A DNA stretch of 20,000 bases from Malassezia furfur (lineage: Eukaryota): assembly GCA_052055015.1 (NCBI GenBank), contig JBQJIT010000009.1, one strand, 5' to 3'. The position numbers were made by a program, and so were the translations under genes. Positions within the stretch are counted from its first letter, which is position 1, and each line of letters opens with the position of its first letter. Below the pieces are notes generated by a model. That model did not search any database, was not told where the DNA came from, and was given only the letters and a program-made list of their open reading frames with translations. This document shows, in pieces, positions 3,333 to 19,572 of this stretch.

Positions 3333-4862
3333 TCATCGCCACTGGTGCTGCTTCGCGCCAATGGCAACCGCAAGGTCCTCGAGCTCACGTCCCCATGCAT
3401 GAGCTACCCCGGCCTGCCGGCGGCTCACCTGCTCCGCACGCGGCGCAAGCTCGAGCGTCCCCTCCACCTGGTCAATCCGACCGCGAATGCGCCCGTCGAG
3501 GATAAGCATCAGCACGAGCGACGTCACCCGTTCCTCTGCGAGCTGCAGCATGTCGGCCAATGCCGAGAGCCGGATGGAGCCATAGGGCCGCACAGCACCG
3601 ATTAGGTATTGGATCCTCAGCTCCGTGAGCACGTCTGCAATGAACTCGCGGATAAAGTCGTCGTCGGTGAGCGTTGCATGGTTGTCTGGGTGAGCATGGC
3701 ACGTACCGCGCACAATGCGCTCGGCACCCTGTACATCACGCCGCTGGTAGGCGTCGACAAGCGAGGTCATCGCGACAATGTTGGGGTCGTCGCGGTATGG
3801 CTTAGTCTCCTGCGAGTCAAATGGGTTGACGTCGCTACCCATAAGCATGTGCGCTAGCACAAGATATTTGAGAACTTGGATGCGCAGCTGGCTTCCCGCT
3901 TCATCGTAGTTGCGGAACGCCTGGAAAAAGTCGACCTGCGCGGCCTCCCAGTTTTCTGCGTGAGCGTGCGACGTACTTTCGGCCATATGCATCTTACCGC
4001 CGCTCTCGCGAATCATGCCCATGGTGCGGGGGTGCGGAATCGCATTCTTGATTCGCATCGCTGCATCGTAGGTGTCCTGCATCAGTGTGTTGACCCACCT
4101 TGACTTTCTTCAGGTTGCCCATCTCGCGGTACATTTGGATCTCGAGCGCGAGCAGCTCCAGCATGAGCGTGCCCTTGGACTGTCCGTCGCCAGCATCGGC
4201 CGCGAACTCGTTTGCGCGCAGCTCACGCAGCGTCTCGGTAAGCCGCGCCCACTCTTTGCGCGACAGCCACAGCCGCGCAAGTTTCAGCTTAATCTTCATG
4301 TTGAGCCGGTCGCTCTGCGACGCGGCCAGCACCTCGTCTGTCGCTTGGTAGAATGCCTCGAGGATCGCGAGGGACGCATTCGACGCTGAGACGTAGTCGA
4401 GGATCGAGTTGACCGATTTTTCGCTGCATCAGTTTCCCACGTACGTGTAGTTTCGCGTTACGGCTGACTTGGTATACTTGAGCAGTGCGCGATAGGTCCG
4501 CAGCGCCTCTTCGTGCTGTCCCCGATGGAAATGGATCTTGGTCTGCTGCTTGAGCGCCTTGAATCCCCTGTGTGAGCGCATCCACATACCACTCGGTCAT
4601 ATCTGTCTCGGCATCCAAGATGTCCTGAAGCTCGCGGATCGCCGCGTCGGGCTGCTCAGCCTTGATGGCTGCGTCAGTGCGATGCATAGGTACCCTTCGC
4701 GTTGTAGTATTTGTTCTCGATATATGCGTCCGCATCTTGCTCATCGTCGTCGTCCTCATACTCGAAGTCATAGTCCTGCATAAGTCGGTTGCGCGCACCT
4801 CTTCGAGCGCATCGTCCATCATAAACTGCGTCAGTGGCGCGGCCTACCTCCTCGTCCGACAT
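3333..4862 (-). CDS. CSN2: COP9 signalosome subunit 2 (PCI domain), 450 aa after splicing 8 introns
   Basis: Spliced product reads MSDEE-FMMDDALEE-DYDFEYEDDD...IENKYYNAK...EWGFKALKQ...VTRNYTEKSVNSILDY...PHPRTMGMIRESGGKMHM...DFFQAFRNYDEAGS...NPFDSQETKPY...ILDGRIRGRIDQV. Introns are 4826-4847, 4776-4798, 4669-4693, 4568-4589, 4424-4444, 4077-4098, 3956-3976 and 3686-3706. Spliced length is 1353 nt (in frame). Confidence 0.95.
4424..4444 (-). other. Representative 21-nt spliceosomal intron (GTACGTGGGAAACTGATGCAG) in CSN2
   Basis: It contains an in-frame TGA, so it must be removed. Removal restores the conserved RNY(T)EKSVNSILDY. Confidence 0.9.
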
Positions 4863-4975
4863 CCTGGCGGCGCACGGTCGTTGCGGAGCTCGCCGATCGA
4901 TCGGGGAAATATACACGTGCTGGACTCCCGGCCGTCGCGCAGCCGAACCCCGTTTCCGATCGTCGATCGCTCGCC

Positions 4976-5692
4976 ATGGTCCTGGTACGTAGGCAGCTGC
5001 ATTGTGCCTTCTTACACGCAGGAAAAGCTGTCCATCTACCCCCAGCCCGATCAACCGGTGACCGTCGTCGAGACCTCGAACGAGCTCGAGCGCCAGGTCG
5101 GTGGCATCCGCGAAGCCGTCCAGCGAGGCACGCGCGGGGCCTTGCAGTCGGTGCGCTCGGGCGTCGACCGCGTGGTGAACACGGAGCACAAGGTCGAGAG
5201 TAGGTTCACGAGGCACTAACGCAGACCGCTTTGACCAGCTCGTCGCCAAAGACGAGTCGCTCACGCCCAACGGCCTGTACGTCGGCGTTGCGACGCTCGC
5301 CAGCGTTGTGTTCACGCGGTACCGTACGTGTTGCTACTCACCCAGGCTCGTTCCCGATTCGCTGGTTCACGCCGCCGCTTGTGCTTGCGCTGTCCTTCAA
5401 GTACTTCCTGCCGCACACCTTTGACAACACGGCGGAATACTACGATGCGGTGGAGCACAAGAACTTCCCGCAGTTCAGCGAGAAGCGCCAGAATGTTTGG
5501 TCGACGATCAAGCGCACCTACTTCACTGGTGTGTCGCACCTTGAGCGCACGGGCGAGCAGGCCAAGGATGCCCTCGCGTCGGGCGTTCACAGCATGGAAA
5601 ACAGCACCGGCCTCAAGCTCGGCTCGGTGCTGCCGACGGGCACGGTGCCGGAGTCGGCGCCGAAACTGGCCGACAAGACCAAGCTCGTGTAA
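4976..5692 (+). CDS. MICOS complex subunit MIC26/MIC27 (apolipoprotein O family), 210 aa, 3 introns
   Basis: Reads MVL-EKLSIYP...VETSNELERQV...EHKVE-NRFDQLVAKDESLTPNGLYVGVATLASVVFTRYRSFPIRWFTPP...YFLPHT, matching the ApoO/MIC26 pattern. Introns are 4985-5021 (37 nt), 5200-5224 and 5324-5345. Spliced length is 633 nt. Confidence 0.85.
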
Positions 5693-5713
5693 TAGGGTAT
5701 AGCCAACTCGATC

Positions 5714-6630
5714 CTATCGCTTTGCATGGCCAGGCGCCAAGAGTTGTCCTGCGAGACGCCGCCCAGCCGCGCTCAGTTGCGGCGCGCGCTGCGCTCGCGA
5801 AAACGCCGGCGCCGTTCGCACAGGCTTGGGTCGCTTTGCGCGCGCCTCATGAAAGTCGCGGCGCACAACTGGTGTCGACAGGCTAGGGTCCGTGGACGAC
5901 TCGCCGACCAGCGGCAGGTCGTCGCTCCACCCAATGCGCTCGCGCAGATCGGCGTCGCGCGCCGCGCGTTCTAGGCGCGCTTTCTTGTCCGCACGGAACG
6001 CACGGCGCATCTCAGCATTGCGCGCGTACGGGTCTGCCCACCGCCCATAATTGTGTTCCTCAAGCTCCTCGATGCGCGCCTGCCGCTTCGTACCGTCCTG
6101 CTGCTGTGTCTTTTTGCGCTCGAGCTGCGAAAAGGCGCCGTCCTCGCTGGGCGCCTCGGGGTCTGTGTGAGGAGGCATGCGTACCGTGAATCGGGAATCC
6201 GCCATGCTCCTCGGGATCCCAATCCTGGAGCTGCTCGCGCGCGCCTGACTCGATCACGTAGCGCGTGTGCTCAGGATCCGTCTGGATCGCAAAGTAGCTC
6301 TTGCACGACGGACACTTGCACCGGAACAGCCAGATAGGCGTCGAGTAGTACTGGCCTACCTGTCTTTTCTCAGCATTAAAGCGCACACCCTGTCCAATCC
6401 GCTCGTTGCACGAGAGGCTGGCATCAGCCTTGCACATACCACCAGATGTGAAAGGGCAGCTCAACTGTGTCATTGAAGTACACGTACATCGCACCACTTT
6501 GCCAAACTTGGACGGCCCGTCTCTCCGAGTCGGCCGTGGCTTGAATGGTTTGTCACGATCGTCCTCGTCCCAGGGGCGGTACCGCCCCACTATGCATCAG
6601 CGACGCACACCTACTATTAAACCCCTGCAT
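5714..6630 (-). CDS. Saf4/Yju2 (CWC16/CCDC130-type) splicing factor, 274 aa, 4 introns
   Basis: Spliced start MQGFNMGRY, then VRFELPFHIWCLSCNERIGQGVRFNAEKRQVGQYYSTPIWLFRCKCPSC...IQTDP (two CxxC), then DPYARNAEMRRAFR. Introns are 6590-6614, 6465-6487, 6418-6439 and 6163-6184. Spliced length is 825 nt. Confidence 0.92.
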
Positions 6631-6664
6631 GGTGGACGTATGACCTCCACACGTGCACGGGCAA

Positions 6665-7849
6665 CTACGGCAGGGAGAGAGCACGGAATTCCCAATACTT
6701 GGTGCGTGCAGGGTCGGCGTAGCGTAGCCGCGCAAGGATCTGGGTAAGCAAATTACGTACTGCGCGGCCCTCGTTGCGGAGCGCTTCATCCTGGCTCGCC
6801 TGGTACTGCTCGATCGCGGCGTCCAGAAGCCACTCCAGCGCATAGGGTGGCGTCCGACCAGCCTCGTCAATTTCAGGGTGCTCTGCGGAGTGCACATGGT
6901 CTCGGTCCGGTACAAAGGCAGCCACCTGATCCGCAATATCGGTCATCGGCTTCCGCGGCTCAAGCGCTGTACACAGCCTAGGTGAGCCCTCCACGTACCC
7001 CCGCAAGTAGTTCCACGGGCTCGCATTGTTGGGCGCCATAGCAATTTTCTCAAGCGCGTACGTGATTTCGGCATCGCGCGTCGTTTGCAAAGACGGACTG
7101 ATCCGCCGGCCTTCTGCGCCACGCCCAAAAATGCAGAACCAGCGGTGGTTGTACGCGCTATTGTTCCGAATGTCCTCTGCAAGCATCTCGTCCACAAACG
7201 CAAGCTCACCGTCCCATAGTTGAGGAAAAGCACCCGCGCCTGGCGCACGCAGTTTTTCGTCATGCTCATGCAGTCCGCCGAAGTGGGCCAGTACCCATTG
7301 CCGGTAGGCCCAGGTATGGTAATTCTTGGCGTCCAGGCTCAAATTCGCGCGTGTAAAGTCGAGTTCACGGCTTGGATCACCCAGCACGGACACAATGATG
7401 CGGCGGTGTTGCCTGTGTTAAAATAGAGCTTACCAGATCTGGTAGTTCTTCATGTTGTGCTTCGCAAACTCATCCAAGAAATCGAGTTCCTGGCGCAGGC
7501 GGTCATGGTTACCGTCGGCCTCGCTTAGCTGCAGCAGCACCTCAGCACGGTACTGCCAGATGCTGTAGTTGGCGGGGTTCAGGTACAAAAGATGAGCTGT
7601 GAGCTGCAGCGCGCGTTCCGAGGCTTCGACACGCCCAGGATGCATCTGCTTGAGTGCACGAAACAGGTCCATGGCCTGGGAATCTGCGTAAGCCTGAGAC
7701 GTACACTCGGGGTCGTACGGAATGGGGCACAGCGGATACGGTCCATCGTCCTGCGACACTGGCACAACGTCGGCCCACGTAGAAGACGTGGGATCGAATC
7801 GCATGGTGGACGGATCCTGCTCCGCGTCCACCTCGCGAATGGCAACCAT
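6665..7849 (-). CDS. RAM2: Protein farnesyltransferase/geranylgeranyltransferase-I alpha subunit, ~366 aa, 4 introns (all 21 nt)
   Basis: Contains WADVVPVSQDDGPYPLCPIPY and PPTA repeats NPANYSIWQYR, KNYQIWQHRR, DAKNYHTWAYRQW, DIRNNSAYNHRWF and APNNASPWNYLRG; ends DPARTKYWEFR. Introns are 7684-7704, 7413-7433, 6978-6998 and 6740-6760. Start codon is uncertain (7849 or 7804). Confidence 0.95.
7413..7433 (-). other. Representative 21-nt spliceosomal intron (GTAAGCTCTATTTTAACACAG) in RAM2
   Basis: It carries an in-frame TAA inside the PPTA repeat. Removal restores KNYQIWQHRR. Confidence 0.9.
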
Positions 7850-7936
7850 GCGAATGTGGAGAACAAAGGAACATGACAAAGCAACTATGGGCCTATCACC
7901 CCGCAGAAACAGAAACGAACATTGCGCCATCCCAAA

Positions 7937-9163
7937 CTAGGTATGCAGCGGCTCAGCAGCGACGTACTGGAACTCACTGTCCGACGCCACTTGTTGCGCT
8001 TCGCTGGCCCTCGCATCGATGGGCTTCGTGAGGTAATCCTCTTCGAAGAGCGTGCACCAGTCGTACGAGCCTAGCCGGCGCTGCAGCAGATCACAGACGC
8101 GCGCCTTGGTCCAACCATCAAACTCGATCTGCAAGGCCAAGGGATGGCTCGGTTCGGCCTCTGATAGCAACGCATCCACATTGAGATGGGTCGGCCACAG
8201 GTGGTGCTCGCGTAAAAGCCATTCGAGACGCACAATGCGTCGTTTGTGGTCACAGTAGGCTTCATGGATCAGGCATAGACGCTCGCGCACTTCCGGGTCA
8301 AGGATGCGCCCGGATACGTCGACCGCGCGCCATGCCGGCCCGTTCGGCCAGGGAGGTATGTCTGGCTCCAGGGGCACATACAGTGTCGTCACAACGCGGC
8401 GGCGCATTTGCTTGCTTGGTGCGACGGGGAACAGGCGCTCGAGGTCGTACTGCGACACGGTAAGCGTGTTCTTCGTTTCGTCCTCGTATGCGGCTGCAGT
8501 CGCCGCCGACTTTTCGAGCGCCTTGGCCTGCGCCACATCGGCGCGCTTCACAGGCGTATACAGCGATCCATCCAGTTCGATGCCAAAGCGATGCACATTG
8601 AGCGAGTGCGCAAATGCCGACCATGCGCGCTGCGCCGTCCACTTGTGCGACCATTGATCTTCCACCTCGCAGCCCACGGCGCGGAGTGCCAAAGGCGCGT
8701 TGGTGACCAGCGTTTCAAACAGGCGGGCGCCCTGAGGGCCCGAGCTAAACGAGCGTGCAGATTGAAGACCTGCGCCATGGCGCATCGAGGGCACATACGC
8801 AGGCCCATGCGGCAGCCTCGCACGCATCGCGGCAAAGTTGCCGAGCGGCGTCGCACGGCTCGACAGGCCAAAGTGCTCCGGCACGAAGCCAGAACGTGGC
8901 GAAGCGGGTCGCATCCCATTTTTCACGCTCGAGGGAGAGAAGACACGCAAAGCCCCATCCCAGAACGGGGCAAGTTTCTCGAGGGTCAGACGCGCATAGC
9001 GACCAAGGCGGTGGCGGCGGCCGCGCCGCGCCGCCATGCCGGCGTTGCGAGACGAGAAGCGCAAGGCAGAGGATCGTGGTGCACGTAGTGCTCCAGCTGG
9101 GTCTAAATTGCGACCCAGCCGGAGCATGGCTCGGAAGAGGTCCTGTTTAGGAGGACCTGCCAT
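7937..9163 (-). CDS. Uncharacterised fungal protein (~408 aa), possibly Spg5 (stationary phase protein 5)-like
   Basis: Long intronless ORF with first ATG at 9163 (MAGPPKQ); the ORF-track start at 9283 is not ATG. The segment GAGLQSARSFSSG..RLFETLVTNAPLALRA resembles my recollection of a conserved fungal motif. Family assignment is tentative. Confidence 0.55.
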   Translation of the reverse strand: MAGPPKQDLFRAMLRLGRNLDPAGALRAPRSSALRFSSRNAGMAARRGRRHRLGRYARLTLEKLAPFWDGALRVFSPSSVKNGMRPASPRSGFVPEHFGLSSRATPLGNFAAMRARLPHGPAYVPSMRHGAGLQSARSFSSGPQGARLFETLVTNAPLALRAVGCEVEDQWSHKWTAQRAWSAFAHSLNVHRFGIELDGSLYTPVKRADVAQAKALEKSAATAAAYEDETKNTLTVSQYDLERLFPVAPSKQMRRRVVTTLYVPLEPDIPPWPNGPAWRAVDVSGRILDPEVRERLCLIHEAYCDHKRRIVRLEWLLREHHLWPTHLNVDALLSEAEPSHPLALQIEFDGWTKARVCDLLQRRLGSYDWCTLFEEDYLTKPIDARASEAQQVASDSEFQYVAAEPLHT

Positions 9164-9350
9164 GCCGAGCGTCTGCAATGCAATCAATCCGGAGGGGAAG
9201 GTGGAGCAGCGGTGGCGGCGTGCCCATGGCGCAGGGGCCACCCTGGCGCCACCGGCACGTGGCCTTGTGGGGCGGAGCGCCACCGGCGAGGGCTGTGGGG
9301 CTGCGCAGGGCGCGTACCGATGGTATCCATAGAGGTGTGCTAATTACATG

Positions 9351-10045
9351 TTACAGAAGAAGCAGAAGCGACACGCCAATGGGGGCCACAATAAAGAGAA
9401 GGACGTGAATGGAGGGGCGAATGGCCGCACTCAGGAATAGAATGGGGAAGGTGTTGGCGTACTTACCCTCGCCGCTCGCGGAGCTGAGCGGGACAAAGCC
9501 CAGCATGCGGTCACGGTCATTGGAGAAAAGAGCTTCGCAGTCAGGAATCTTGCATGCCTCCTCTGCCGACACCTTGGCCTGGATGCGGTACCAGCATGTC
9601 GTGTCCGTCGCCGCAGTGCAGCACGTGTTCACGATGCTATCGGTCCAGCCGGCCTGCTGGTTCTGTGACAGGGCGTTATCCATCGTGCAGGTACCCTGCG
9701 GCGTGTCCGCCGAGAGAGTCGCCGTCGCACCGGCCGAGGCAACACCCGAATGCTCGAGTTGGTTCGACGCCGTGGGCGTGGCCACGTCCGAGGACGTCGC
9801 ATTGCTGCTCGCAGAGCTGTTTGAGCTTGGTGCACTTTTGGCGGCAGACGACGTTGCATTCGACGCGGTCGCGTTGTTTTCGGCGCGTGCAACGACCGGC
9901 GATGCAAACACAGGCGCAGCAGCTATGGGCGCGTTCAGGTCATTGTCACTGCGTCAGCACGTCAGACCTACCCCACGGCAAGCTGGGCCTGAGCCACAGA
10001 TACGAGCGCAAGAACCGCGAGTAGCAGGGCAACAAAGGCCTTCAT
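9351..10045 (-). CDS. Small secreted, probably GPI-anchored protein (223 aa) with an S/T/N-rich stalk and a 6-Cys domain
   Basis: Removing a 23-nt intron (9949-9971, GTAGGT...CTGACGCAG) joins the signal peptide MKAFVALLLAVLALVSVAQA to the 9351-9911 ORF. It has N-x-S/T sites, six Cys, and a hydrophobic C-terminus (SAAIRPSIHVLLFIVAPIGVSLLLLL). Confidence 0.85.
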
Positions 10046-10180
10046 CGACGTTTCGCTCCAAGTGCCGAGAGCGTCGTGGGGGCGACCGAGTCGACTCCCC
10101 AAAAAGCCACGTGCACAAGTCGTTTACCCCAGCCTATGCAATGAAAAGTGGGGGATGCGTGACCGGCGCGGTCAGACGGC

Positions 10181-11482
10181 CTACGGATGGTCGGCGAGCG
10201 TCTTGCGCATGCCCTGCAACAGATCGGCTTTGAGGTCCTCGACCTCCTCTATCCCGGTCGAGACACGGATCAGGCTCGGACTCTCGTCGGGCGTCGACAT
10301 GATGCGCTGCTCCATAAGCGACTCGACACCGCCCAACGAGGTGGCAGGCGTGAAGTAGGCGAGGTTGTGCGGCAGGTACTTGGCCCATACCTCCTTTTGA
10401 AGATAAATACCAAAGGTTGGCGAGGCACCGCCGGGCATCTGCTCCTTCGGGTCGAATGTCCGGTCTTCCAACCTGCTGTGCTCGTTCAAGTCCGAGTCGG
10501 CGTCGTGCCGCGGCTGCAATGACGAGTGGTAGACGCGTTGGACAAACTTGCCGTCCGTTAGCTCTGCAGGGACACCCTCTGGCGGTGTCTGGCCTTTGGT
10601 GAGCGAGAAGAGCCACTGCACAAGCTCGGTCGCGTTCTTGGACTGCTGGCGCACACGCAGCGACATGGTGCGCAGCGATCGCAGCAGCAGGTAGGACTCG
10701 AGCGAGCCCAACACGTACCCGTACACGGTGCGATCATGCCACATGGACTTAAACGCCTTGTAGTCCTTGGTTGCAACGACACCGGCAAGCACGTCCGAGT
10801 GGCCGCCAAAGTACTTGGTGCCTGAGTGCATCACAAAGTCGGCGCCCTGGTGGAAGGGGTTCTGCAGCGGTGGCGGGGCAAACGTGCTGTCCACGCCAAG
10901 ATAGCCATTGACCTCGTGAGCGCGCTTGGCATAGTGCGCAATGTCACGCGCCTCGCCGGTCGGATTGAGCGGCGACTCGACCCAGACAAGCAAACCGCCC
11001 TGGCGTAGCCCCGACTCGGAGTCGACCTTGCCCTCGATCGTCGGATACGGTTCGTCCAGGTCGATAAACTTGACATTGCGGCCGCGAGCATATACCTCTG
11101 CGACATTGTGTACACCAAAGTAGCCGCGGCGAATCGCAATCACGCTTGGGTTCACGGCGGTGATCACGGCGAGCGCCGCAGAGAGGCCCGAACTGAAGGT
11201 GAGTGCATGGCCCTCAAGAATGCTGCTCAACACTTCTTCAGTACGTAGGTTGGTATCCTGCGTATAGCGGCTGTACACGTTTACCGATGGCTTCTCCGGG
11301 GTGTCGAACGCACCAGCAATGCCCTTGCCGAGCACCGAGTCGGGATGCGGCTGGCGGAAGGTCGTGGAGAGTGACATCATGGGCGCGACCGAGTGCGCCG
11401 GGTCTTTGGAGTGATCCGGCTCATCGGCGTGCAGCAGACGAGTTTGCAGACTGGGCGCAGGAAGCTGGTTCGGGGCAGACAT
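10181..11482 (-). CDS. Cys/Met metabolism PLP-dependent enzyme (cystathionine gamma-synthase/lyase family), 433 aa
   Basis: Intronless; likely start MSAPNQLP at 11482. Motifs include YSRY, FSSGLSA, WVESPLNP, VDSTFAPP, the PLP-lysine motif HSGTKYFGGHSD, ATSLGGVESL and IRVSTGIE. Confidence 0.93.
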   Translation of the reverse strand: MSAPNQLPAPSLQTRLLHADEPDHSKDPAHSVAPMMSLSTTFRQPHPDSVLGKGIAGAFDTPEKPSVNVYSRYTQDTNLRTEEVLSSILEGHALTFSSGLSAALAVITAVNPSVIAIRRGYFGVHNVAEVYARGRNVKFIDLDEPYPTIEGKVDSESGLRQGGLLVWVESPLNPTGEARDIAHYAKRAHEVNGYLGVDSTFAPPPLQNPFHQGADFVMHSGTKYFGGHSDVLAGVVATKDYKAFKSMWHDRTVYGYVLGSLESYLLLRSLRTMSLRVRQQSKNATELVQWLFSLTKGQTPPEGVPAELTDGKFVQRVYHSSLQPRHDADSDLNEHSRLEDRTFDPKEQMPGGASPTFGIYLQKEVWAKYLPHNLAYFTPATSLGGVESLMEQRIMSTPDESPSLIRVSTGIEEVEDLKADLLQGMRKTLADHP

Positions 11483-11609
11483 GGCCGATTGCGTTACAAT
11501 CCCTGGGCAAGTAGGACAGTCCGAGCGCGACGTGCATGACTCGGAATTAGTGTTGCTGACTGTATTTCTTGTCCTCCACCGCGCCGGCGTTGGGCAGCGT
11601 GCACGTCCC

Positions 11610-12271
11610 ATGCAGATCCCCATTCTCCCGGAGCCGTTCCAGAGTGTAGGTGATGCGCTGATGCAGATCATTGCGTACTTTACGTCGACACCCATAAACG
11701 CCGGTCTCACCGGCCTGTTGTTGCTGTCGCTCTTTTGGCTGTTCTACGTGCCGCATCCGCTCGGCGAAGACTTTACGCCGCCCGTGTCGCAGGCACGTCA
11801 GCGGCTCGATACGAGCTCGGCGTACACCGCGCTGCCGCTCGACCACCCCAAATCGATCGAGTTTGTCTCGTACACTCCCAAGACCCTCGCGCTTTTTGAT
11901 GGAACGGGCAGTGAGCAGTCGCCGGACGGCAGCAAGATTCTCTTGGCGATCAACGGCAAGGTGTTTGACGTGTCGTCCGGCCGCAACTTTTATGGACCCG
12001 GAGGTCCTTACGGCAACTTTGCAGGCCGTGATGCGTCTCGCGGGATGGCCAAGCAGTCGTTCGATCTATGTATGTCACATGCTGACCCAGCCATGTTGAC
12101 GCCCCTCGACCAGCCGATTGACACGCTCGAGGACCTCACGGACAGCGAGCGGTACGTTCATGTGCTAACGATAGGAAAAACATGTTTGACTGGGAGTCGC
12201 ATTTCGCCGGAAAGTATGGCATTGTGGGCGAGCTGGTTAACGAGGGCCAGACCTCGCGCAGGCCACAGTAG
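11610..12271 (+). CDS. DAP1: Membrane-associated steroid/heme-binding cytochrome b5-like protein (Dap1/MAPR), 205 aa, 2 introns
   Basis: N-terminal TM helix, then ILLAINGKVFDVSSGRNFYGPGGPYGNFAGRDASRGMAKQSF. Introns are 12070-12090 and 12152-12174; removing the second restores ERKNMFDWESHFAGKYGIVGELV. TAG is at 12269-12271. Confidence 0.92.
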
Positions 12272-12308
12272 TCCGCCGCCGGCGCCGCCGATCGAACGAG
12301 TTTTGTAG

Positions 12309-13748
12309 ATGTGGAGGCTTGTGTGGCGTGGCGACATGCTTCGGTGCGGCGCCGCGAGCGCCGCGCGCGCGCGCCGCACTGCCCCGGCGCCTGCGTGCGC
12401 GCGCGGCTCACAGAGTGCCTCGGAGAAGCTCTTCCGCGATGCCGAGGCGGAGGAGGATGCCGAGGAGCGTGCGCGCGCGAAGATTCGCCGTGCGCAGCGC
12501 GCGTCAGAGCCGGTGTGGACGGGCGACGAGCGCATTGAGGACACGGTATTGCGCATGCTCGAGCACAAATACAAACCCCTGCGGCGTGGTGAAGATGGGC
12601 GTGCAGCGGAAAAAAAGCGGCTGGAGCGGGTGCCGCGACCCACCGTCCGGCCGCTCACGGCGCAGGACGAGGTAGGGGCGAATGGCGTCGTGATCCGACG
12701 TACCGGCGACAACCCCTGGGACCTGTTTTACTCGGCACAGCCGAAAAAAGAATCGCGCGTGTATCGCGGGCGTACCGATGTGGACCTGAAGCCGCCGGGG
12801 TCCGAGATGAAGCAGCAGCTCAATAAGATGGGCGTGTCGGTGCAGCACCTGCCGCGCGACGATCCCAAAGCCATGGGCAAGATCCGCGACACGCTGCGTA
12901 GCTCAGCGGTACGCGACCGAATCAAAACGGCGGTCGATAAGTCGATTCGGTACCCTGACCGCAAGAAACCCGCACCACCGGCCGACGCCGAGGAGGAAAG
13001 CGAGTCTACACCGCTGCTTGGTGTCGTGAGCACGGCCAAAGGCATGGCGGGCATCGCTGAGATGAAGATCGAGGAGGCACTGCGCAAGGGCACGTTCCAG
13101 AACAACTCGTTACGTGGCAAACCCATCCCATACGACTACAACGAGGGCAATGCACACCTGGGCCGCGAAGAATTCCTGCTGAACCGCATGGTGCAGCGGC
13201 AGAATGCCGCGCCGCCTTTCGTCGAGATGAACATGGACATGAAGAGCGAGGAGCGTGCGCTGCGGCAGCGCATCCAAGCAGCATGGCTCTGCCGCGCGCT
13301 CATTCGCCTCGAGCAGAGCGGCGCATGGCGGCGCATGGAGCCGGTCGCGGTCGCCTGGGAGGAGGACGACGCAAAGCCGAGCGAACTGCCGGCCTACACC
13401 CTGGATGTGACGAGCGACGCTCAGCGCGCGACCGTCGCGTGGGCACGCAGCTTCCGTGACACGCAGTGGGTACAGGAGCAGGCCGCGTACCATGCGGCGG
13501 CCGTCCAACAGCTCAACCAGGTCATCCGCCGCTACAACCACATTGCGCCCTACTTTGCGCGCAGATTACTCTATACCAAAGAAAGTTTTGTTGAGGACGC
13601 GCTCGACCGTGCGTTTCCGCTGCTCGTCGAGGCCGCCAGCGCGCGCCTCCGAGGCATGCGCGCGTCGGGTCCGGCCGCAGCATCTGCGCCCACGGCCGAG
13701 CGTCCACGCACGTCGTGGTGGGCATGGATCCGCGGGGGAGCCACATAG
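12309..13748 (+). CDS. DUF1992 / DNAJC28 conserved-domain protein, likely mitochondrial
   Basis: Intronless 479-aa ORF (alternative start 12336) with an Arg/Ala-rich presequence-like N-terminus. Motifs include WTGDERIEDTVLRML, AEMKIEEALRKGTFQNNSLRGKP, EEFLLNRMVQRQNAAPPFVE and LNQVIRRYNHIAP. Confidence 0.85.
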   Translation: MWRLVWRGDMLRCGAASAARARRTAPAPACARGSQSASEKLFRDAEAEEDAEERARAKIRRAQRASEPVWTGDERIEDTVLRMLEHKYKPLRRGEDGRAAEKKRLERVPRPTVRPLTAQDEVGANGVVIRRTGDNPWDLFYSAQPKKESRVYRGRTDVDLKPPGSEMKQQLNKMGVSVQHLPRDDPKAMGKIRDTLRSSAVRDRIKTAVDKSIRYPDRKKPAPPADAEEESESTPLLGVVSTAKGMAGIAEMKIEEALRKGTFQNNSLRGKPIPYDYNEGNAHLGREEFLLNRMVQRQNAAPPFVEMNMDMKSEERALRQRIQAAWLCRALIRLEQSGAWRRMEPVAVAWEEDDAKPSELPAYTLDVTSDAQRATVAWARSFRDTQWVQEQAAYHAAAVQQLNQVIRRYNHIAPYFARRLLYTKESFVEDALDRAFPLLVEAASARLRGMRASGPAAASAPTAERPRTSWWAWIRGGAT

Positions 13749-14666
13749 TTACATTACAATACACTGCGTGAGTCGCTGCACGTACCTCTTGCTCGTCGCC
13801 CGTAGCACTGCGCGCCATGTCACGCGTAAAGTTGGCGCTGCCGCCGCCGCGCGGACCGAAGAGGTTCACGACAAGCACACCGTGGTTCTTGGGATCGATG
13901 TGCGCCGCAATGTTGTACTTGCGCAGCAGATCCTCGACGGCCGGGCGGATCTTGGACACGTGGTCACGCGAGTGGATGCCTTTGCCGACAATGATGCGCA
14001 GTTCCGGCACGCCCTGCGCCTGCGCCTGCGCGACGACTTGGTCGACCTTCGCGAGCGCCTCCTTGACGTACAGGCCATGCACATCGATCGTGCCCGGCGG
14101 CGAGTCAGCGTTGTTGGCAGCATAAATCCACTCGACCGCCTGGGCGTTGAGCTGCTCCATCTGCTGCTTATGGTAATTGCCCTCGTCACTGAGCTGCTTG
14201 GCGCGCGCACGGTCGCCGTGGCTGTACGCCGACTTAGACTGGTCAAAGCACTTGGACATCTTGTCGCCCTCAGATCGTGCGCGGTTGCGCAGCTCCTTGT
14301 ACTGCGGGTTCTGCGCATTGACGTTGTTGTCGTCGAACGCGTGGATGTCGTTCGTGCCGAGAATCGCCTGCGTGTTGGGTGCGGGGCCGCCCACGGCGCC
14401 CGTTCCGGGCCCGGCGCCGTAGGCTGGTCCGGGAGCATAGCCGCCGCCCTGCGCATAGCCGCCCTGTGCATAGCTGCCGCCTTGGCCCCAGCCGCCCTGC
14501 GCCATGCCGGCGCCCATGCCAGCGCCCATGCCAGCGCCCGCGGCCGTCTGGAACTTGCGTCGTTTCAGCGCACGCAAAAGCTGTGTGAGCCCGTTATGCC
14601 TACCTTGCGCCCGATGCGCAAGAACATGCGCCGGTTGGACTTGACAAAGCGCAAAATTTCGTCCAT
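13749..14666 (-). CDS. DUF1771 + Smr domain protein (290 aa) ending in the CaaX motif CIVM
   Basis: Exon 1 is MDEILRFVKSNRRMFLRIGRK, followed by intron 14581-14603. DUF1771 (AYSHGDRARAKQLSDEG) and Smr (IDVHGLYVKEA..LRIIVGKGIHS..NHGVLVV) follow. After intron 13764-13785 comes the final exon TGT ATT GTA ATG TAA. Spliced length is 873 nt. Confidence 0.9.
13764..13785 (-). other. 22-nt terminal intron (GTACGTGCAGCGACTCACGCAG) preceding the CaaX micro-exon
   Basis: It matches the local donor and branch/acceptor consensus. Splicing yields ...DEQE-CIVM-stop. Confidence 0.85.
14436..14541 (-). repeat. Coding repeats (GAGM x3; QGGW/QGGS/YAQGG units) in the low-complexity N-terminus of the Smr protein
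   Basis: 12-bp GCGCCCATGCC(G/A) units and 15-bp GCATAGCCGCCC-like units are visible on the + strand. Confidence 0.7.
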
Positions 14667-14749
14667 CCTCGTGTCAAGCGTCGCGCAGATCAGTGGAGAA
14701 AAAAACGCGACGCGCATATGCATTCATTATATACATCCCCTCCACCTGT

Positions 14750-16914
14750 CTACGCGCCGCCGGGGCGAGGCAGCGGCCCCACCTGCACGCCGGCCGGCCG
14801 GCGCGGCTTTTGGGCCCTTTGCACGGCCTGATTGTGCCGTTTCATTGCCCGGCGCCACTTGGATTTGCCGCCGTGTCGTAGCCGCGTAAGCACGGTGCTC
14901 ACCGTGCCGAGCGACGCATTCGCCCACGGCGATTCCGTAGCGTCCTCGTCCAGTTCGCCCTTGCTACGCAACTTGTCCTCGAGCATCTGGATGGCGCGCG
15001 GGGACGCAGGCCGGCTCCGCCACTGTGCCATGCGACGCAGCCACAAAGGCGAGCGCCCCGCCGCGCTCGCCATCTTCGTCATAAAGGTGTCGCAGCCCCG
15101 CAGCGCATGCTCCCAATCCTCGGAACGGAGCACCTGCTTTTTCTGCCAGTAAGGCGACGTAGCACCCTGGTCCACCATCCAGTCAGGGTTGCGAGGGTAG
15201 TACGTCCCGACGTATTCATGACCATCACGCTGCAGCTTGAGGTAGCTTTGGTCCCAGCCGGCCAGTACAAACGTCTCATTTCCACAGTCGACCCACGCGT
15301 TGGGCGACGCCTTTTGCAGCTGGCGGCTGGGCGTGGCCTGCATGGCCGCATACAGCTCGGCAGGATTATCGTAGTCGACGAACGCAAACGTTGCCGACTC
15401 CCATGGCGAATGGGAAGCGCGCCGCGGGGCAACAGGCGTCTCCTTCTGCGCCCGCGACGCTTCTGCCCGCGCGCGAAGCGAGTCAATCGTCTCGTCTGCA
15501 TCAGCACATCACGTACCTTCGATTGGCTGCTCATCGTACAGACCAAAGAGCGTCGGAGTGCAGACCATATCATTGGCCAAATTCCCCACGAGATCGAGGA
15601 TCAGGCAGTCCTGCTTGCCCGTCTCGGGGCTCAGACGCATCCCCCGCCCAATCATTTGCGCAAACAGGTTCTGGGACTGGGTGGGTCGCGCGAGCAACAC
15701 ACAATCGATCGGTGGGACGTCGGCACCCTCGGTGAGGATCGCTGCGTCAGTCAGGACACGCACCGCAGTTGATCAGGACAGGAAAGTCGCCGCGCTGGAA
15801 TGCTTGGAGTAGCTCCTGGCGCTCGACAACGGGCACACCCGAATGGATGCCGCGTGCATCAATACCGCGCGCCTGGAACTCGTGGGTGAGAGCATGTACA
15901 TGGTCAATGTTCACCGCAAACACCAGCGTCGACCGCCGCACGCTGTGGGCGCGCTGGATCCACGTGCGTACAATCAGCTCGTTGATCGACGGCTCGTTGA
16001 TCACCTTGGCGAGCGACGCGACGTTGTAATCCGAGCCCACACGCGACACGGATGACAGGTCAAACTCGGCGTGCACGGCCGTAAAACGCAGCGGGCACAG
16101 CCTGGGTCAGGGACGTCACGTACCACTTTTCGTCCATCATCGCAAGGAAGTCCTTATGATACACGATTTCCTCATATACGGTACCGAGTGCCATGCCGTC
16201 GTGTCGACTGAACGTCGCCGAGAAGCCAATGATGGGTACAGCGTGCGGCTTTTTTGCCTCGGCGTCCGGGAGGGCCACACCGCCGTGAAAGTGCGCCAGG
16301 ACAGCGCGGTAAGATGCCGACGTGGAATGGTGTGCCTCGTCCACAATTACGCACTTGAACCGTGCCGGGTCGTACTTCTCAAGCCGGTTGGGTCGACAGA
16401 TGGATTGCACGGTCGCGACGGTGACATCGGCAAATCCTGACGCCTTGTGTTTCGTGCCCTGCTCTAGCTCTAAGCTGAGATGCGGCAGGATGCGCCGCAC
16501 AGTCGCGGCCGCCTGCTCCGCCAAGGCCACGGCGTTGACGAGGATAAGCACCTGGCCGGCACAATTCGGCGGAGGCGGCATCCGGTGCAGGAGCTCGGTG
16601 AACATGGTCGTCTTGCCGCTGCCCGTAGGTGAGGAGACGCCAATGCGGCTCACCCCGCGGCGCAGTGCAGCCAGGCATGTCTCGACGCACTCGGCTTGGT
16701 ACGGCCGGAGCACCACCGACGAAGCCGGTGCGGGCGGTGGAGCGGCGGCCGCAGTGTCAGCCAAGCCTGCAGTGCGACGCGCACCCACGTAGCTTGTAGA
16801 CCATAGAGTACGTATGCATGGACGTAAGGGGCGCACGTAGGCGCCTATGTGCGCCACACCGAGTCGCGCGCCTCGGCACCCCCCCACGACCAAGGCGCGT
16901 GCGGCGTGCTGCAT
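14750..16914 (-). CDS. IRC3: Irc3-like mitochondrial superfamily-2 (DExH) helicase, 699 aa, 3 introns
   Basis: Motifs are LRPYQ, PTGSGKT, DEAHH, GFSAT, TLVFAVNIDH, NCAILTEGADVP (across a splice) and QMIGRGMRLSPETGKQDCLILD; C-terminal LTRLRHGGK. Introns are 16102-16123, 15742-15763 and 15496-15516. Spliced length is 2100 nt. Confidence 0.88.
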
Positions 16915-16952
16915 ACCCACACCTCCACCCAGACCCGCGACGTGCCTCCTTG

Positions 16953-18055
16953 ATGACGACCCGCCCCGCGACTCATGCAGGGACCTGGTACTCGGCAGAT
17001 CGTACGCTCCCCCTCACTCACACAGCTGCGCAACTCGACAGGATGCTGTCGGACTGGCTCCAAACCGCTACGTCGGCGTCGGCTTCCGATGTGGCCACCG
17101 ACGCACAGACCCCCCGCATTGCGCAGCACCCGTTGGTGAAGGGATGCAAAGCAGTGATCGGCCCGTACGTGGCAAACGCTGACGCAGGCATGCCGGCTAC
17201 CGCTTTTCTGGTCCCTCGGCGGCGTGGGCATATGGCTGCATTGATCCCGAGACGATGTACGTCGCACGCCACTGACCCAGCCACCGTGTCATTGTGCTCG
17301 GTCCCTCGCACCACGCGTACTTGGATGGGTGCGCGCTCAGCCCGTACAAGAAGCTCGCGACGCCGCTCGGCGACCTGCGTGTGGACAAAGAGGTGAACGA
17401 TACGCTGCGCACCTCGAAGCTCTTTCGCCTGATGTCCGATGAGGTGGACGAGGACGAACACAGCATGGAGCTGCACTACCCCTACATCCGCAAGGTGTTT
17501 GGGGACCGCGACATTTCCGTGGTACCGATCCTCGTAGGCCACCTGTCAGCGGTCAAGGCGGCGCAGTTTGCCGAAGTGCTTGCGCCGCACGTCGCTGACC
17601 CAGCGACGCTGGTGGTGGTCTCGACCGACTTTTGTCACTGGGGCGAGCGCTTCCGCTACACGTACTACCAAGGCGAGGACGACGCGACGCCTGTGCTGCT
17701 CTCGTCGCGCACGTCGCGTGAGCAGTACGCCAAGCGCCCCATCCACGCGTCGATCGCGGCGTTGGACGCCGCGGCCATGACCGCCATCTCGTATAGCCCG
17801 ACGCCGGATGCGCCCGTGGTGCACACAAGTGCCGCGGATGCACGCAAGGCATTTAGCGCGTACCTGTCGCGCACGGGCAACACCATCTGCGGCCGCAACC
17901 CGCTGATGCTCCTGCTGGCGACGCTCGCGCACCTTGAGGCACAGCAGCAGGGCTCGTTTGTGTGCAAGTTCACCCACTATGCGCAGAGCGGCGCGGTGCA
18001 AGTGCCGAGCGACAGCTCTGTGTCGTATGCGGCAGGCTATGTACAGCAGGTGTAA
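16953..18055 (+). CDS. MEMO1: MEMO1 / Mho1 family protein, 343 aa, 3 introns
   Basis: Motifs are RPATHAGTWY, IGPHAGYRFSG (across a splice), LGPSHH, DEDEHSMELHYPY, STDFCHWGERF, NTICGRNP and YAQS..DSSVSYA. Introns are 17002-17025, 17165-17187 and 17257-17280. Confidence 0.95.
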
Positions 18056-19572
18056 TTAGTTTTTCTTGTCCATCCACGACGGGCGACTGTCGTCGCGCAT
18101 CGCATACACCTCGTCGAGGCGCTCGCGCAGCGCCTGCACCGCCTCCTTGCCCGCAACCAGGTCACCGTCGCGCATGGTGTGCACGTTGGAGATGTCGCGT
18201 CCCTCGCGCTCGTCGCGCTCGACGCTCTCCACGAGGCGCTCCGAGAAGATCGCCTCGCCCATGAGCGCAATGTGCTGCCGGTTCTCTGCGACGCCCTCGT
18301 ACAGCGGGCGCACGTTGGGCGCGTCCCAGTCAATCGCACCGAGCCCCGCGGCAGTTTCAGGCGCATCCGGCGCGGCGTGCGCCTCTTCCCACGCGAGGCA
18401 CGGCGCCCAGTCCGCCTGGTCGATGAGCTCCTCGGCGCGGTTCTCGAAGATGCTCTGCATCTGCGACTGCTGCGCCATGAGGTCGACGATGCGCGCCTCC
18501 GACTTTTCTGCGGCGTCCTCGCCGGCGTTCGGGTCAAGCACCGACTTGGCGACGGGCACCTGCGGGTCGAAGTCGAGCATGTCGAGATCGAGCCACGCCG
18601 GCGCGCCCTTGGCGACCCAGTTGGGCTGCTCGTCGCAGTACAGTGCATAGACGAGCAAATTTGGGTCCCACGCGCCTACCGCGACGGTCGCGAGGCGGTT
18701 CGTGTCGCCGTGTGCGCTGTAGCGGAAGCGGACGAGGTGGATCGGCAGCAGAATCGGGTAGCACGCAAGCATGTCGACGTCCAACGAGTCGCGCTCCATG
18801 CGCACGACGGCGCGCGCATCCTGGTCGGCGTGCTCATTGATGTTCGCCACCTGGATCTCGACGCCGGGCAGCAGCTTGAAGCGCCGGCGAATGTGGAGCG
18901 GCGGCCCCTGGGCAAGAAGGTCGACCATGAGCGTGCGCAGGTCGGCGTGCTGCAGCATCGCGGGCAGGCTGCGTGGAGACACGTTGAATGGCAGCACGCT
19001 GATCTTCCCGTCGATGCCCACGTCGGGGTGCAGGTGCCGTGGGCGCTCAAAGGCCGCATAGGGCATCGGCGCATCGGCGCCCTTGATGAGCGGCATCGGC
19101 ACCTGCTCCATGGCGGGCGTGCGCAGCGGCGGCGGGCGCAGCGGCAGCGTGTCGAGTGGCTTGTATGCGTTACCCGGGAACGCCGAGTTGGTCGAGACGA
19201 CTGTGTCAGTAGGCGCACCTACACGTTGCCGTGGCCTGGCCGGTATCGCCGCGGCACCGCATCTTCCACACGCCGTCGACGGTCTGGGTGAGCAGTACGA
19301 CGTACCCAGATCGGGTAGTACAGGGCCTGTGCCGACTCGAAGCGCATCACGTCCTCCTCCGACTCGGTCATCCACCCGAGCCCGAGCGCCTGCGACACCG
19401 CGAAGGCAATGCCGCCCCAGCGCCCCTTGATCGTGGGCAGAAGCTGCTCAAGCGCGCCGAGGCGTGCACGATGCACGGCGTCTTTGGTGCCGAGCTGGAA
19501 ATCAAGTGCGCTCACGCGGCTCGCGCGCGCCGCACGCGCCGACGTGCTCAACGCACGCACCGGCACAAACAT
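18056..19572 (-). CDS. Uncharacterised protein (490 aa), probable mitochondrial presequence, 2 introns
   Basis: Starts MFVPVRALSTSARAARASRVS. Introns 19284-19305 and 19201-19222 join three frames into one 1473-nt CDS (ALYYPIW-TVDGVWKMR..ATF-VSTNSAFPG...ACYPILLPIHLVRF). I do not recognise the family. Confidence 0.75.

Follow-up and report, generated by a model that had tools for sequence, protein, structure and literature searches.

The stretch analysed here, 20,000 nucleotides (nt) of contig JBQJIT010000009.1 from Malassezia furfur (assembly GCA_052055015.1; "the window" in what follows), contains 33 short GT-AG introns in 10 genes, located between positions 3686 and 19305. Judged from sequence, these segments are very probably ordinary U2-type GT-AG spliceosomal introns that have shrunk to little beyond the three splicing signals. 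Ten are 21 nt long, 11 are 22 nt, six are 23 nt, two are 24 nt, three are 25 nt and one is 37 nt; the median is 22 nt, and 32 of the 33 fall within 21-25 nt in this sample. An earlier note, written from the letters of the window, had counted 32 introns with nine of 21 nt. We found one extra 21-nt intron, while all other length classes and the outer coordinates, 3686 and 19305, were the same.

The window has a G+C content of 63% overall (0.57-0.71 per kb) and is tightly packed with eukaryotic genes on both strands. Fourteen genes are complete, and 10 of these carry introns. Candidate introns were collected by reading the sequence and by a motif scan, and were then built into explicit exon-intron models running from ATG to stop. 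Scanning all GT...AG pairs with open flanking frames was uninformative, because nearly all frames are open at 63% G+C. Eight introns lie in the gene for COP9 signalosome subunit 2 (CSN2), three in an ApoO/MIC26-like gene, four in a Saf4/Yju2-family gene, four in RAM2, one in the gene for a small Ser/Ala-rich protein, three in a cytochrome b5-like Dap1/PGRMC gene, two in a DUF1771-Smr gene, three in an Irc3-like helicase gene, three in MEMO1 and two in a gene without an assigned family (gene N). All ten spliced models were open from ATG to stop with no internal stop codons, which agrees with the frame consistency claimed before. When translated exons were compared with the protein database, the best matches were from Malassezia: CSN2 exon 6 was 97% and RAM2 exon 3 95% identical to M. 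brasiliensis, and Saf4 exon 4 was 96% identical to M. furfur, which places the window in the furfur/brasiliensis clade.

For the motif scan, we used a strict intron motif, GT[AGT]NG[TC] ... [CT]TNA[CT] N0-3 [CT]AG, with a total length of 19-27 nt on both strands, and estimated the chance level with 200 dinucleotide-preserving shuffles. The window contained 34 matches, compared to 2.23 ± 1.55 in the shuffles (maximum 8). Thirty of the 34 matches are introns of the models, every one on the coding strand of its gene. The remaining four are two nested donors that share one acceptor, one antisense match in CSN2 and one match in exon 1 of gene N. The antisense match, at 4210-4230 (+) inside a CSN2 exon, is probably one of the approximately two chance matches expected per window. 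The match in gene N, at 19495-19515 (-), is a 21-nt segment in phase 0 with the full donor, branch and acceptor layout, comprising seven codons without a stop; it could be either a further, 34th intron or a coincidental match. The strict motif misses three model introns: one is the longest, with 37 nt, another has the donor GTACCT and the third has ATGAC as its branch pentamer. A wider motif scan covered lengths of 12-120 nt. Within these limits, every independent candidate in the window had at least 21 nt, and the sharp mode at 21-22 nt with a floor at 21 nt, as described in the earlier note, was seen again.

Retention of 21 of the 33 introns would shift the reading frame, and four further introns carry an in-frame stop. 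Twelve lengths are multiples of three, and eight of these twelve introns are free of stops (two in CSN2, three in RAM2, one in MEMO1 and two in the cytochrome b5-like gene). The intron phases 0, 1 and 2 are represented 9, 14 and 10 times, respectively. Motif enrichment, frame restoration and the collinearity with orthologues described below argue that these are real spliceosomal introns, as had been proposed from the sequence.

Layout of the splicing signals

All 33 introns begin with GT and end with AG. GTACGT was the most frequent donor (16 introns), followed by GTAGGT (five) and GTATGT (three). At donor position +3, 30 introns have A; 32 have G at +5 and 27 have T at +6, an extended consensus of the GTRNGT type that could pair with U1/U6. 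Thirty introns end in CAG and three in TAG, and in all 33 this AG is the first one after the branch. The branch-like pentamers are CTCAC (10 introns), CTGAC (nine), CTGAT (six), CTTAC (three), CTAAC (two) and others (three). A CTSAC/T pentamer was found in 25 introns, and 32 fit the yeast-type YTNAY, with ATGAC as the exception. The distance from the putative branch A to the 3' end is 5 nt in 29 introns; two introns have 6 nt and two have 7 nt. Counted from the 5' end, this A occupies position 16 (11 introns), 17 (11), 18 (six), 19 (two), 20 (two) or 30 (one).

The introns share a common plan, consisting of a GTAYGT donor (6 nt), a spacer of 6-10 nt and a 9-nt module, CTSAC-N-YAG. Variation in length is confined to the donor-to-branch spacer, which holds 0.04-0.3 bits of information per position; the 15 signal positions together hold about 20.6 bits. 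Since the donor takes 6 nt, the spacer at least 6 nt and the branch/acceptor module 9 nt, the minimum length is 21 nt. The G+C content of the introns is 56.8%. A polypyrimidine tract of the metazoan type was not found in the introns, 29 of which have just 3 nt (C-N-C) between the branch A and the AG. Introns of budding yeast likewise have a weak or missing polypyrimidine tract, and its absence therefore does not bar the introns described here from the U2 type.

Based on general knowledge of the spliceosome, the following mechanism can be proposed. The donor would pair with U1 and later with U6, and CTSAC would pair with U2, leaving the A bulged. Each intron would be recognized as a unit across its own length (intron definition). 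Because there is no room for a polypyrimidine tract, the acceptor would simply be the first YAG past the branch. The lariat loop would comprise 16-17 nt, and the floor at 21 nt may correspond to the shortest donor-to-branch distance that the spliceosome of this lineage tolerates.

Some exons are tiny as well, with lengths of 9, 15, 15, 16 and 25 nt. We located a 9-nt first exon at 4976-4984 (+), a 15-nt first exon at 4848-4862 (-), a 15-nt last exon at 13749-13763 (-) and a 25-nt internal exon at 6440-6464 (-).

Introns supported by orthologues

Alignments with orthologues support 19 of the 33 introns, in CSN2, RAM2, Saf4 and MEMO1. The spliced models were aligned to homologues fetched from the database, and for the comparison with human CSN2 a database protein, P0001, served as a stand-in for the model. 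The alignments comprised 20 of 120 listed homologues for RAM2, picked for taxonomic spread (smuts, Tilletia, Rhodotorula, mushrooms, Mucoromycota, animals and oomycetes), 15 of 29 homologues for Saf4, and 20 of 150 listed representatives for MEMO1, picked for the presence of the N-terminal part. In the motifs given below, a slash marks the exon junction.

The CSN2 gene (3333..4862, -) has nine exons and an open model of 450 amino acids (aa), with the PCI domain in the last exon. This model aligned without gaps to the 450-aa M. brasiliensis protein P0001, and all eight junctions were collinear, as expected if the same introns are annotated there. P0001 in turn matched human CSN2 (6r6h_B) with an E-value of 7.7e-126 over residues 3-442 against 5-438. 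Gaps in this alignment occur only at residues 11-12, 26, about 124 and 421-423, and seven of the eight junctions are at least 10 residues away from any gap. Intron 1 (4826..4847, -; 22 nt; GTAGGC..CTGAC.CAG) is supported by homology, the alignment being gapless at its junction at aa 5. Intron 2 (4776..4798, -; 23 nt) is collinear with P0001; in the comparison with human CSN2, two residues are gapped 2-3 residues upstream of this junction, within a low-complexity acidic region. Homology also supports intron 3 (4669..4693, -; 25 nt; donor GTACCT), which when retained would introduce an in-frame stop and a frameshift. Removal of intron 4 (4568..4589, -; 22 nt) restores EW/GFKALKQ, matching human CSN2. 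Intron 5 (4424..4444, -; 21 nt), which would give an in-frame stop on retention, and intron 6 (4077..4098, -; 22 nt) are both supported by homology. The same applies to the two stop-free introns with lengths divisible by three, intron 7 (3956..3976, -; 21 nt) and intron 8 (3686..3706, -; 21 nt); retention of intron 7 would insert seven residues that are absent from P0001 and human CSN2. The eight CSN2 introns add up to 177 nt, the sum given in the earlier note.

The gene for the Saf4/Yju2-family splicing factor (5714..6630, -) has five exons and an open model of 274 aa with a Saf4_Yju2 Pfam match. All four junctions fit the 15 homologues, and the M. yamatoensis Saf4 (P0132) is collinear with the model at all four. 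Removal of intron 1 (6590..6614, -; 25 nt; TAG acceptor) restores MQGFN/MGRYRP, as in Tilletia and other homologues. Intron 2 (6465..6487, -; 23 nt; branch ATGAC) and intron 3 (6418..6439, -; 22 nt) flank the 25-nt micro-exon at 6440-6464 (-), which was confirmed by homology: VVR/FELPFHIW is restored at the first junction, gapless in the 15 homologues, and FHIW/C at the second, again without gaps. The junction of intron 4 (6163..6184, -; 22 nt) is at the end of a conserved GGF..HD block, and 13 residues span the interval between Pfam positions 107 and 122.

RAM2, the protein prenyltransferase alpha subunit gene (6665..7849, -), has five exons and an open model of 366 aa with PPTA repeats. All four junctions lie in columns where the model is gapless relative to the 20 homologues, and three of them restore near-invariant blocks (PI.Y...Y..AMD, KNYQIW/QHRR and WNYLRG/L). 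The first block is rebuilt by removal of intron 1 (7684..7704, -; 21 nt; stop-free multiple of three), giving PYDPE-Y-SQAMD without gaps across fungi, animals and oomycetes. The second depends on intron 2 (7413..7433, -; 21 nt), which carries an in-frame stop, and the third on intron 3 (6978..6998, -; 21 nt; TAG acceptor; stop-free multiple of three). Retention of intron 4 (6740..6760, -; 21 nt; stop-free multiple of three) would add a 7-residue insertion that is absent from the homologues, in a variable region.

The MEMO1 homologue (16953..18055, +) has four exons and an open model of 343 aa with a Memo Pfam match. Its three junctions are all in gapless columns of the alignment with 20 homologues. 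After removal of intron 1 (17002..17025, +; 24 nt; stop-free multiple of three), the spacing from HAG.WY to L..L.(W)L is that of all full-length homologues; retention would add eight residues between HAG.WY and the next conserved leucines. Removal of intron 2 (17165..17187, +; 23 nt) restores IGP/HAGY. Intron 3 (17257..17280, +; 24 nt), which would give an in-frame stop on retention, lies in gapless columns before RVF.LGPSHH. All junction motifs quoted in the earlier note, EW/GFKALKQ, VVR/FELPFHIW/C, KNYQIW/QHRR, IGP/HAGY and NC/AILTEG (the last in the helicase), were restored in the models.

Considering these alignments, we rejected the idea that the segments are assembly errors, decayed pseudogenes or programmed frameshifting sites instead of introns, and give it almost no credence. 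Random insertions or deletions would have no shared 20-bit motif at fixed spacing, would not all fall on the coding strand, and their removal would not restore collinearity with orthologues. Moreover, database proteins of sister species are collinear with the spliced models at these junctions. A metagenome scan with the CSN2 alignment for orthologous Malassezia loci gave none that was Malassezia-like among 80 loci (best identity 57%).

The same alignments revealed errors in public Malassezia proteins. Four of six CSN2 proteins have a deletion or insertion exactly at junctions, and a fifth is truncated within the last exon. In one of the four, exon 4 is skipped and in another exon 7 is lost; the third has gained 8 residues at junction 7, and the fourth lacks 17 residues after junction 8. 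Among the RAM2 annotations, two start at the first Met of exon 2, without exon 1, and four fuse RAM2 with Saf4. In the Saf4 entry of M. furfur, residues are missing at two of the junctions. P0012, a database open reading frame (ORF) of 242 aa at 6668-7417 (-), is an unspliced read-through of two 21-nt RAM2 introns (241 of 242 residues match) and shows how gene calling by open frames treats introns of this kind. The junction errors in CSN2, RAM2 and Saf4 and the read-through in P0012 bear out the prediction that gene finders mis-annotate these genes, with exons lost, insertions of 7-8 residues kept and adjacent genes joined. Read-through of eight of the 33 introns leaves the frame intact, and pipelines that set the minimum intron length above about 20 nt, or that trust open frames, will mis-call such genes.

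These eight stop-free introns could also be taken to include facultative or unspliced segments, with both protein forms being made or the segment being plain coding sequence. This would apply most to the pair in the cytochrome b5-like/steroid-binding gene (gene H, Dap1/PGRMC-like; 11610..12271, +), which has four exons, an open model, a Cyt-b5 Pfam match and a PGRMC1 match in PDB. Its introns 1 (11646..11666, +) and 2 (12070..12090, +) are both stop-free multiples of three of 21 nt and were assigned by motif; intron 3 (12152..12174, +; 23 nt; TAG acceptor) is supported by frame restoration. Compared with the PDB chains, the protein is 2 residues too long in a variable loop when 12070-12090 is retained and 5 residues too short when it is removed. 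The open frame on retention of the eight introns, these loop lengths and the roughly two motif matches expected by chance count in favour of such a reading. Against this, six of the eight (two in CSN2, three in RAM2 and one in MEMO1) lie where orthologues show no insertion of 7-8 residues, and all eight have the full donor, branch and acceptor layout at fixed spacing. We therefore consider it quite unlikely that some of the eight are facultative or unspliced.

Several further points weigh against reading all 33 segments as U2-type introns with a 21-nt floor. Removal from RNA is a conclusion drawn from DNA, and the proposed pairing with U1, U2 and U6 is taken from general knowledge of the spliceosome. 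Frame restoration together with the motif is the sole support for nine of the 33 introns, and the motif is the sole support for two, 11646-11666 and 12070-12090, both of which are 21 nt long and readable in frame. With about two chance matches of the motif per window, one or two of the stop-free multiple-of-three candidates could be false. The sample comprises 33 introns from 20 kb, and both floor and mode may differ genome-wide. Finally, Stentor splices introns of 15-16 nt, and thus 21 nt is not a general physical limit. The earlier note had seen in the floor a spliceosome working at its steric limit; the floor is present in the window, but the limit derived from it would be at most specific to this lineage.

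Short introns in Malassezia and other lineages

Very short introns of Malassezia are already published, and the window is an unusually clean case of ultra-short spliceosomal introns. A review mentions that Malassezia genes have "very short introns" (PMC7426719). The curated annotation of M. sympodialis lists 4493 genes with 5350 introns, which average 30 bp and of which 99% have RNA-seq support (Zhu et al. 2017, PMC5389616), an indirect indication that the introns of the window, too, are removed from RNA. The mean intron length of this species decreased from 65 to 52/50 and then to 30 bp as evidence grew (PMC5389616). For M. restricta, 2150 introns in 4390 genes were reported, with a mean/median of 37.2/30, and minimum intron lengths of 20 and 15 were used for annotation (PMC6473144, PMC9241646). 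Older annotations of M. globosa gave an average of 76-79 bp. M. sympodialis and M. restricta belong to the same genus, with compact genomes of 7-9 Mb, and have very short GT-AG introns as in the window; the lengths published for them are means and medians (30 and 37.2/30). With short introns of Malassezia in print and annotation at minimum lengths of 20 and 15, the novelty is lower than the earlier note implied. In the text passages of one literature collection, which did not extend to Fig. S8 of Zhu et al., we found no Malassezia for which a mode of 21-22 nt, a floor at 21 nt or a fixed branch spacing is stated. The value that remains lies in the rigid layout and in tests of spacing limits in a tractable yeast.

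The published figures could mean that the introns are real but that the mode of 21-22 nt and the floor at 21 nt are effects of a small sample, the genome-wide distribution being broader and nearer 30 nt, with some introns shorter than 21 nt. The number of introns (33) and the means of 30 bp in M. sympodialis, 37.2/30 in M. restricta and 76-79 bp in the older M. globosa annotations speak for it. On the other hand, 32 of the 33 introns fall within 21-25 nt across ten unrelated genes, and the scan from 12 nt upward yielded nothing independent below 21 nt. In addition, long outliers, with maxima above 1000 bp, raise the published means, which also depend on annotation, as seen by the change from 65 to 52 to 30 bp for the same genome. 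On balance, a small-sample effect seems unlikely to us, though it deserves some weight.

The window has 33 introns in 14 complete genes, corresponding to about 2.4 per gene and 1.65 per kb. This density is about twice the value for M. sympodialis (1.19 per gene) and about five times that for M. restricta (0.49 per gene). The excess could be due to local chance, a difference between clades or under-annotation elsewhere. The description of the genome as intron-rich is doubtful, as M. sympodialis was classed as intron-poor in one comparative study; the window has about 2.4 introns per complete gene.

One close comparison is with Stentor coeruleus, whose introns likewise have a narrow length distribution, GT-AG ends and a branch A located 5 nt from the 3' end (PMC9505925). 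There, the branch A is at position 10 of 15 or 11 of 16. The Stentor introns are 15-16 nt long, 75.6% A+U and have a weak branch consensus, whereas those in the window are at least 21 nt long, 57% G+C and have a strong CTSAC; the lariat loop would be 10-11 nt in Stentor compared to 16-17 nt here (PMC9505925). The shared distance of 5 nt between branch A and 3' end suggests that a spacing of 5 nt is close to the shortest with which the acceptor can reach the catalytic centre; the two lineages may have converged on it as a minimum for exon ligation. The donor-to-branch distance is much shorter in Stentor, and the 15-nt floor here would therefore be a property of the lineage, not a general one. 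It could represent the minimum for a spliceosome that demands full pairing with U1/U6 and U2.

Ciliate introns are AT-rich, and Paramecium is depleted in stop-free introns with lengths divisible by three. Such a depletion is not visible in the window, where eight of the 12 introns of this length class (among 33, a small sample) are stop-free. Introns of Paramecium and other ciliates average about 25 nt, with many per genome (10.1101/2021.08.05.455221, PMC5014332).

In the window, 10 of 14 complete genes contain introns, and essential conserved genes depend on them. Microsporidia, in contrast, have a few dozen introns and a reduced spliceosome. In Encephalitozoon, which is related to fungi, the introns are about 23-24 nt long with near-fixed ends and length (PMC13644364). 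Splicing in microsporidia is inefficient, with a median of about 25% as cited in the same study. Introns of myxozoans and dicyemids have a median of 22-27 bp, a convergent extreme shortening in compact genomes; their splice-site motifs are reduced, unlike the strong donor, branch and acceptor consensus of the window (PMC13644364). This study, from 2026, lists ciliates, microsporidia and dicyemids as the exceptions with introns below 30 bp, a list in which Malassezia is not named. The introns of the window share with these groups, and with nucleomorphs, a median below 30 nt and a narrow distribution, but show neither the A+T-richness nor the degenerate signals of the Stentor and myxozoan type.

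We tentatively propose, as a claim that falls somewhat short of an even chance, that Malassezia of the furfur clade has the shortest signal-complete introns known in a free-growing tractable fungus, with a rigid layout in which 5 nt separate the branch A from the acceptor and 15 nt or more separate it from the donor. If this were true genome-wide, and were as sparsely documented as the literature found here indicates, the yeast would be a model for the spacing limits of the canonical spliceosome, and the intron counts in several Malassezia annotations would be substantially too low. Transformation of M. furfur with Agrobacterium and editing with CRISPR are possible. The signals are strong, with only about 6 unconstrained bases separating the donor from the branch site and 3 lying between branch A and AG, and the tractability of this species makes the spacer limits directly testable.

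Remaining genes and gene packing

Continuity of Pfam profiles supports three further introns, two in the ApoO/MIC26-like gene and one in the helicase gene. The ApoO/MIC26-like gene (gene B; 4976..5692, +) has four exons, including the 9-nt first exon, and an open model of 210 aa with the ApoO profile spanning exons 2-4. Intron 1 (4985..5021, +), the longest of the set with 37 nt, is supported by frame and motif (GTACGT..CTTAC..CAG); the only upstream in-frame ATG for exon 2 falls inside CSN2, and none is plausible. At intron 2 (5200..5224, +; 25 nt), the ApoO profile resumes at position 57 after 52, and the 4 residues in between fill this step exactly; at intron 3 (5324..5345, +; 22 nt), it goes from position 85 to 88 across precisely 2 residues.

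The Irc3-like SF2 helicase gene (14750..16914, -) has four exons and an open model of 700 aa with ResIII/DEAD and Helicase_C domains. Intron 1 (16102..16123, -; 22 nt) is supported by frame restoration and motif. At intron 2 (15742..15763, -; 22 nt), the Helicase_C profile likewise moves from position 71 to 74 across precisely 2 residues, and NC/AILTEG is restored. Intron 3 (15496..15516, -; 21 nt) would give an in-frame stop on retention and has the motif. A 19-nt intron at the 5' end of this gene was rejected, as an in-frame upstream ATG at 16914 makes it unnecessary.

The remaining introns were assigned by frame and motif. The small Ser/Ala-rich protein (9351..10045, -) has hydrophobic N- and C-termini, two exons, an open model and no Pfam family; its single intron (9949..9971, -; 23 nt) has the full motif and would lead to an immediate stop on retention. 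Gene N (18056..19572, -) has three exons and an open model of 490 aa, for which no significant Pfam match was found. Frame restoration and motif support both its intron 1 (19284..19305, -; 22 nt) and its intron 2 (19201..19222, -; 22 nt), the latter also carrying an in-frame stop.

The DUF1771 and Smr domain protein (gene J; 13749..14666, -), identified by Pfam, has three exons, the last one of 15 nt, and an open model. Both its intron 1 (14581..14603, -; 23 nt) and its intron 2 (13764..13785, -; 22 nt), located 15 nt ahead of the end of the stop codon, are supported by frame restoration and motif. After removal of the last intron (13749-13785, -), the protein ends in C-I-V-M, which we take to resemble a CaaX prenylation box; RAM2 is encoded in the same window.

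Two intron-free ORFs without a Pfam family were also present, one at 423-2978 (-) encoding a Ser/Asp/His-rich protein of 852 aa and one at 7940-9343 (-) with 468 codons and the first Met at codon 61. Rfam and tRNA scans of the 20-kb window gave no matches. The genes are extremely close to each other. The convergent stop codons of genes I and J (13746-13751) and of MEMO1 and gene N (18053-18058) adjoin directly, with no nucleotide in between. RAM2 and Saf4, which share a strand, are separated by 34 nt from the stop of the former to the ATG of the latter (6630-6665), and the divergent ATGs of the helicase and MEMO1 genes (16914-16953) are separated by 38 nt. Untranslated regions and promoters must therefore overlap neighbouring coding sequence.

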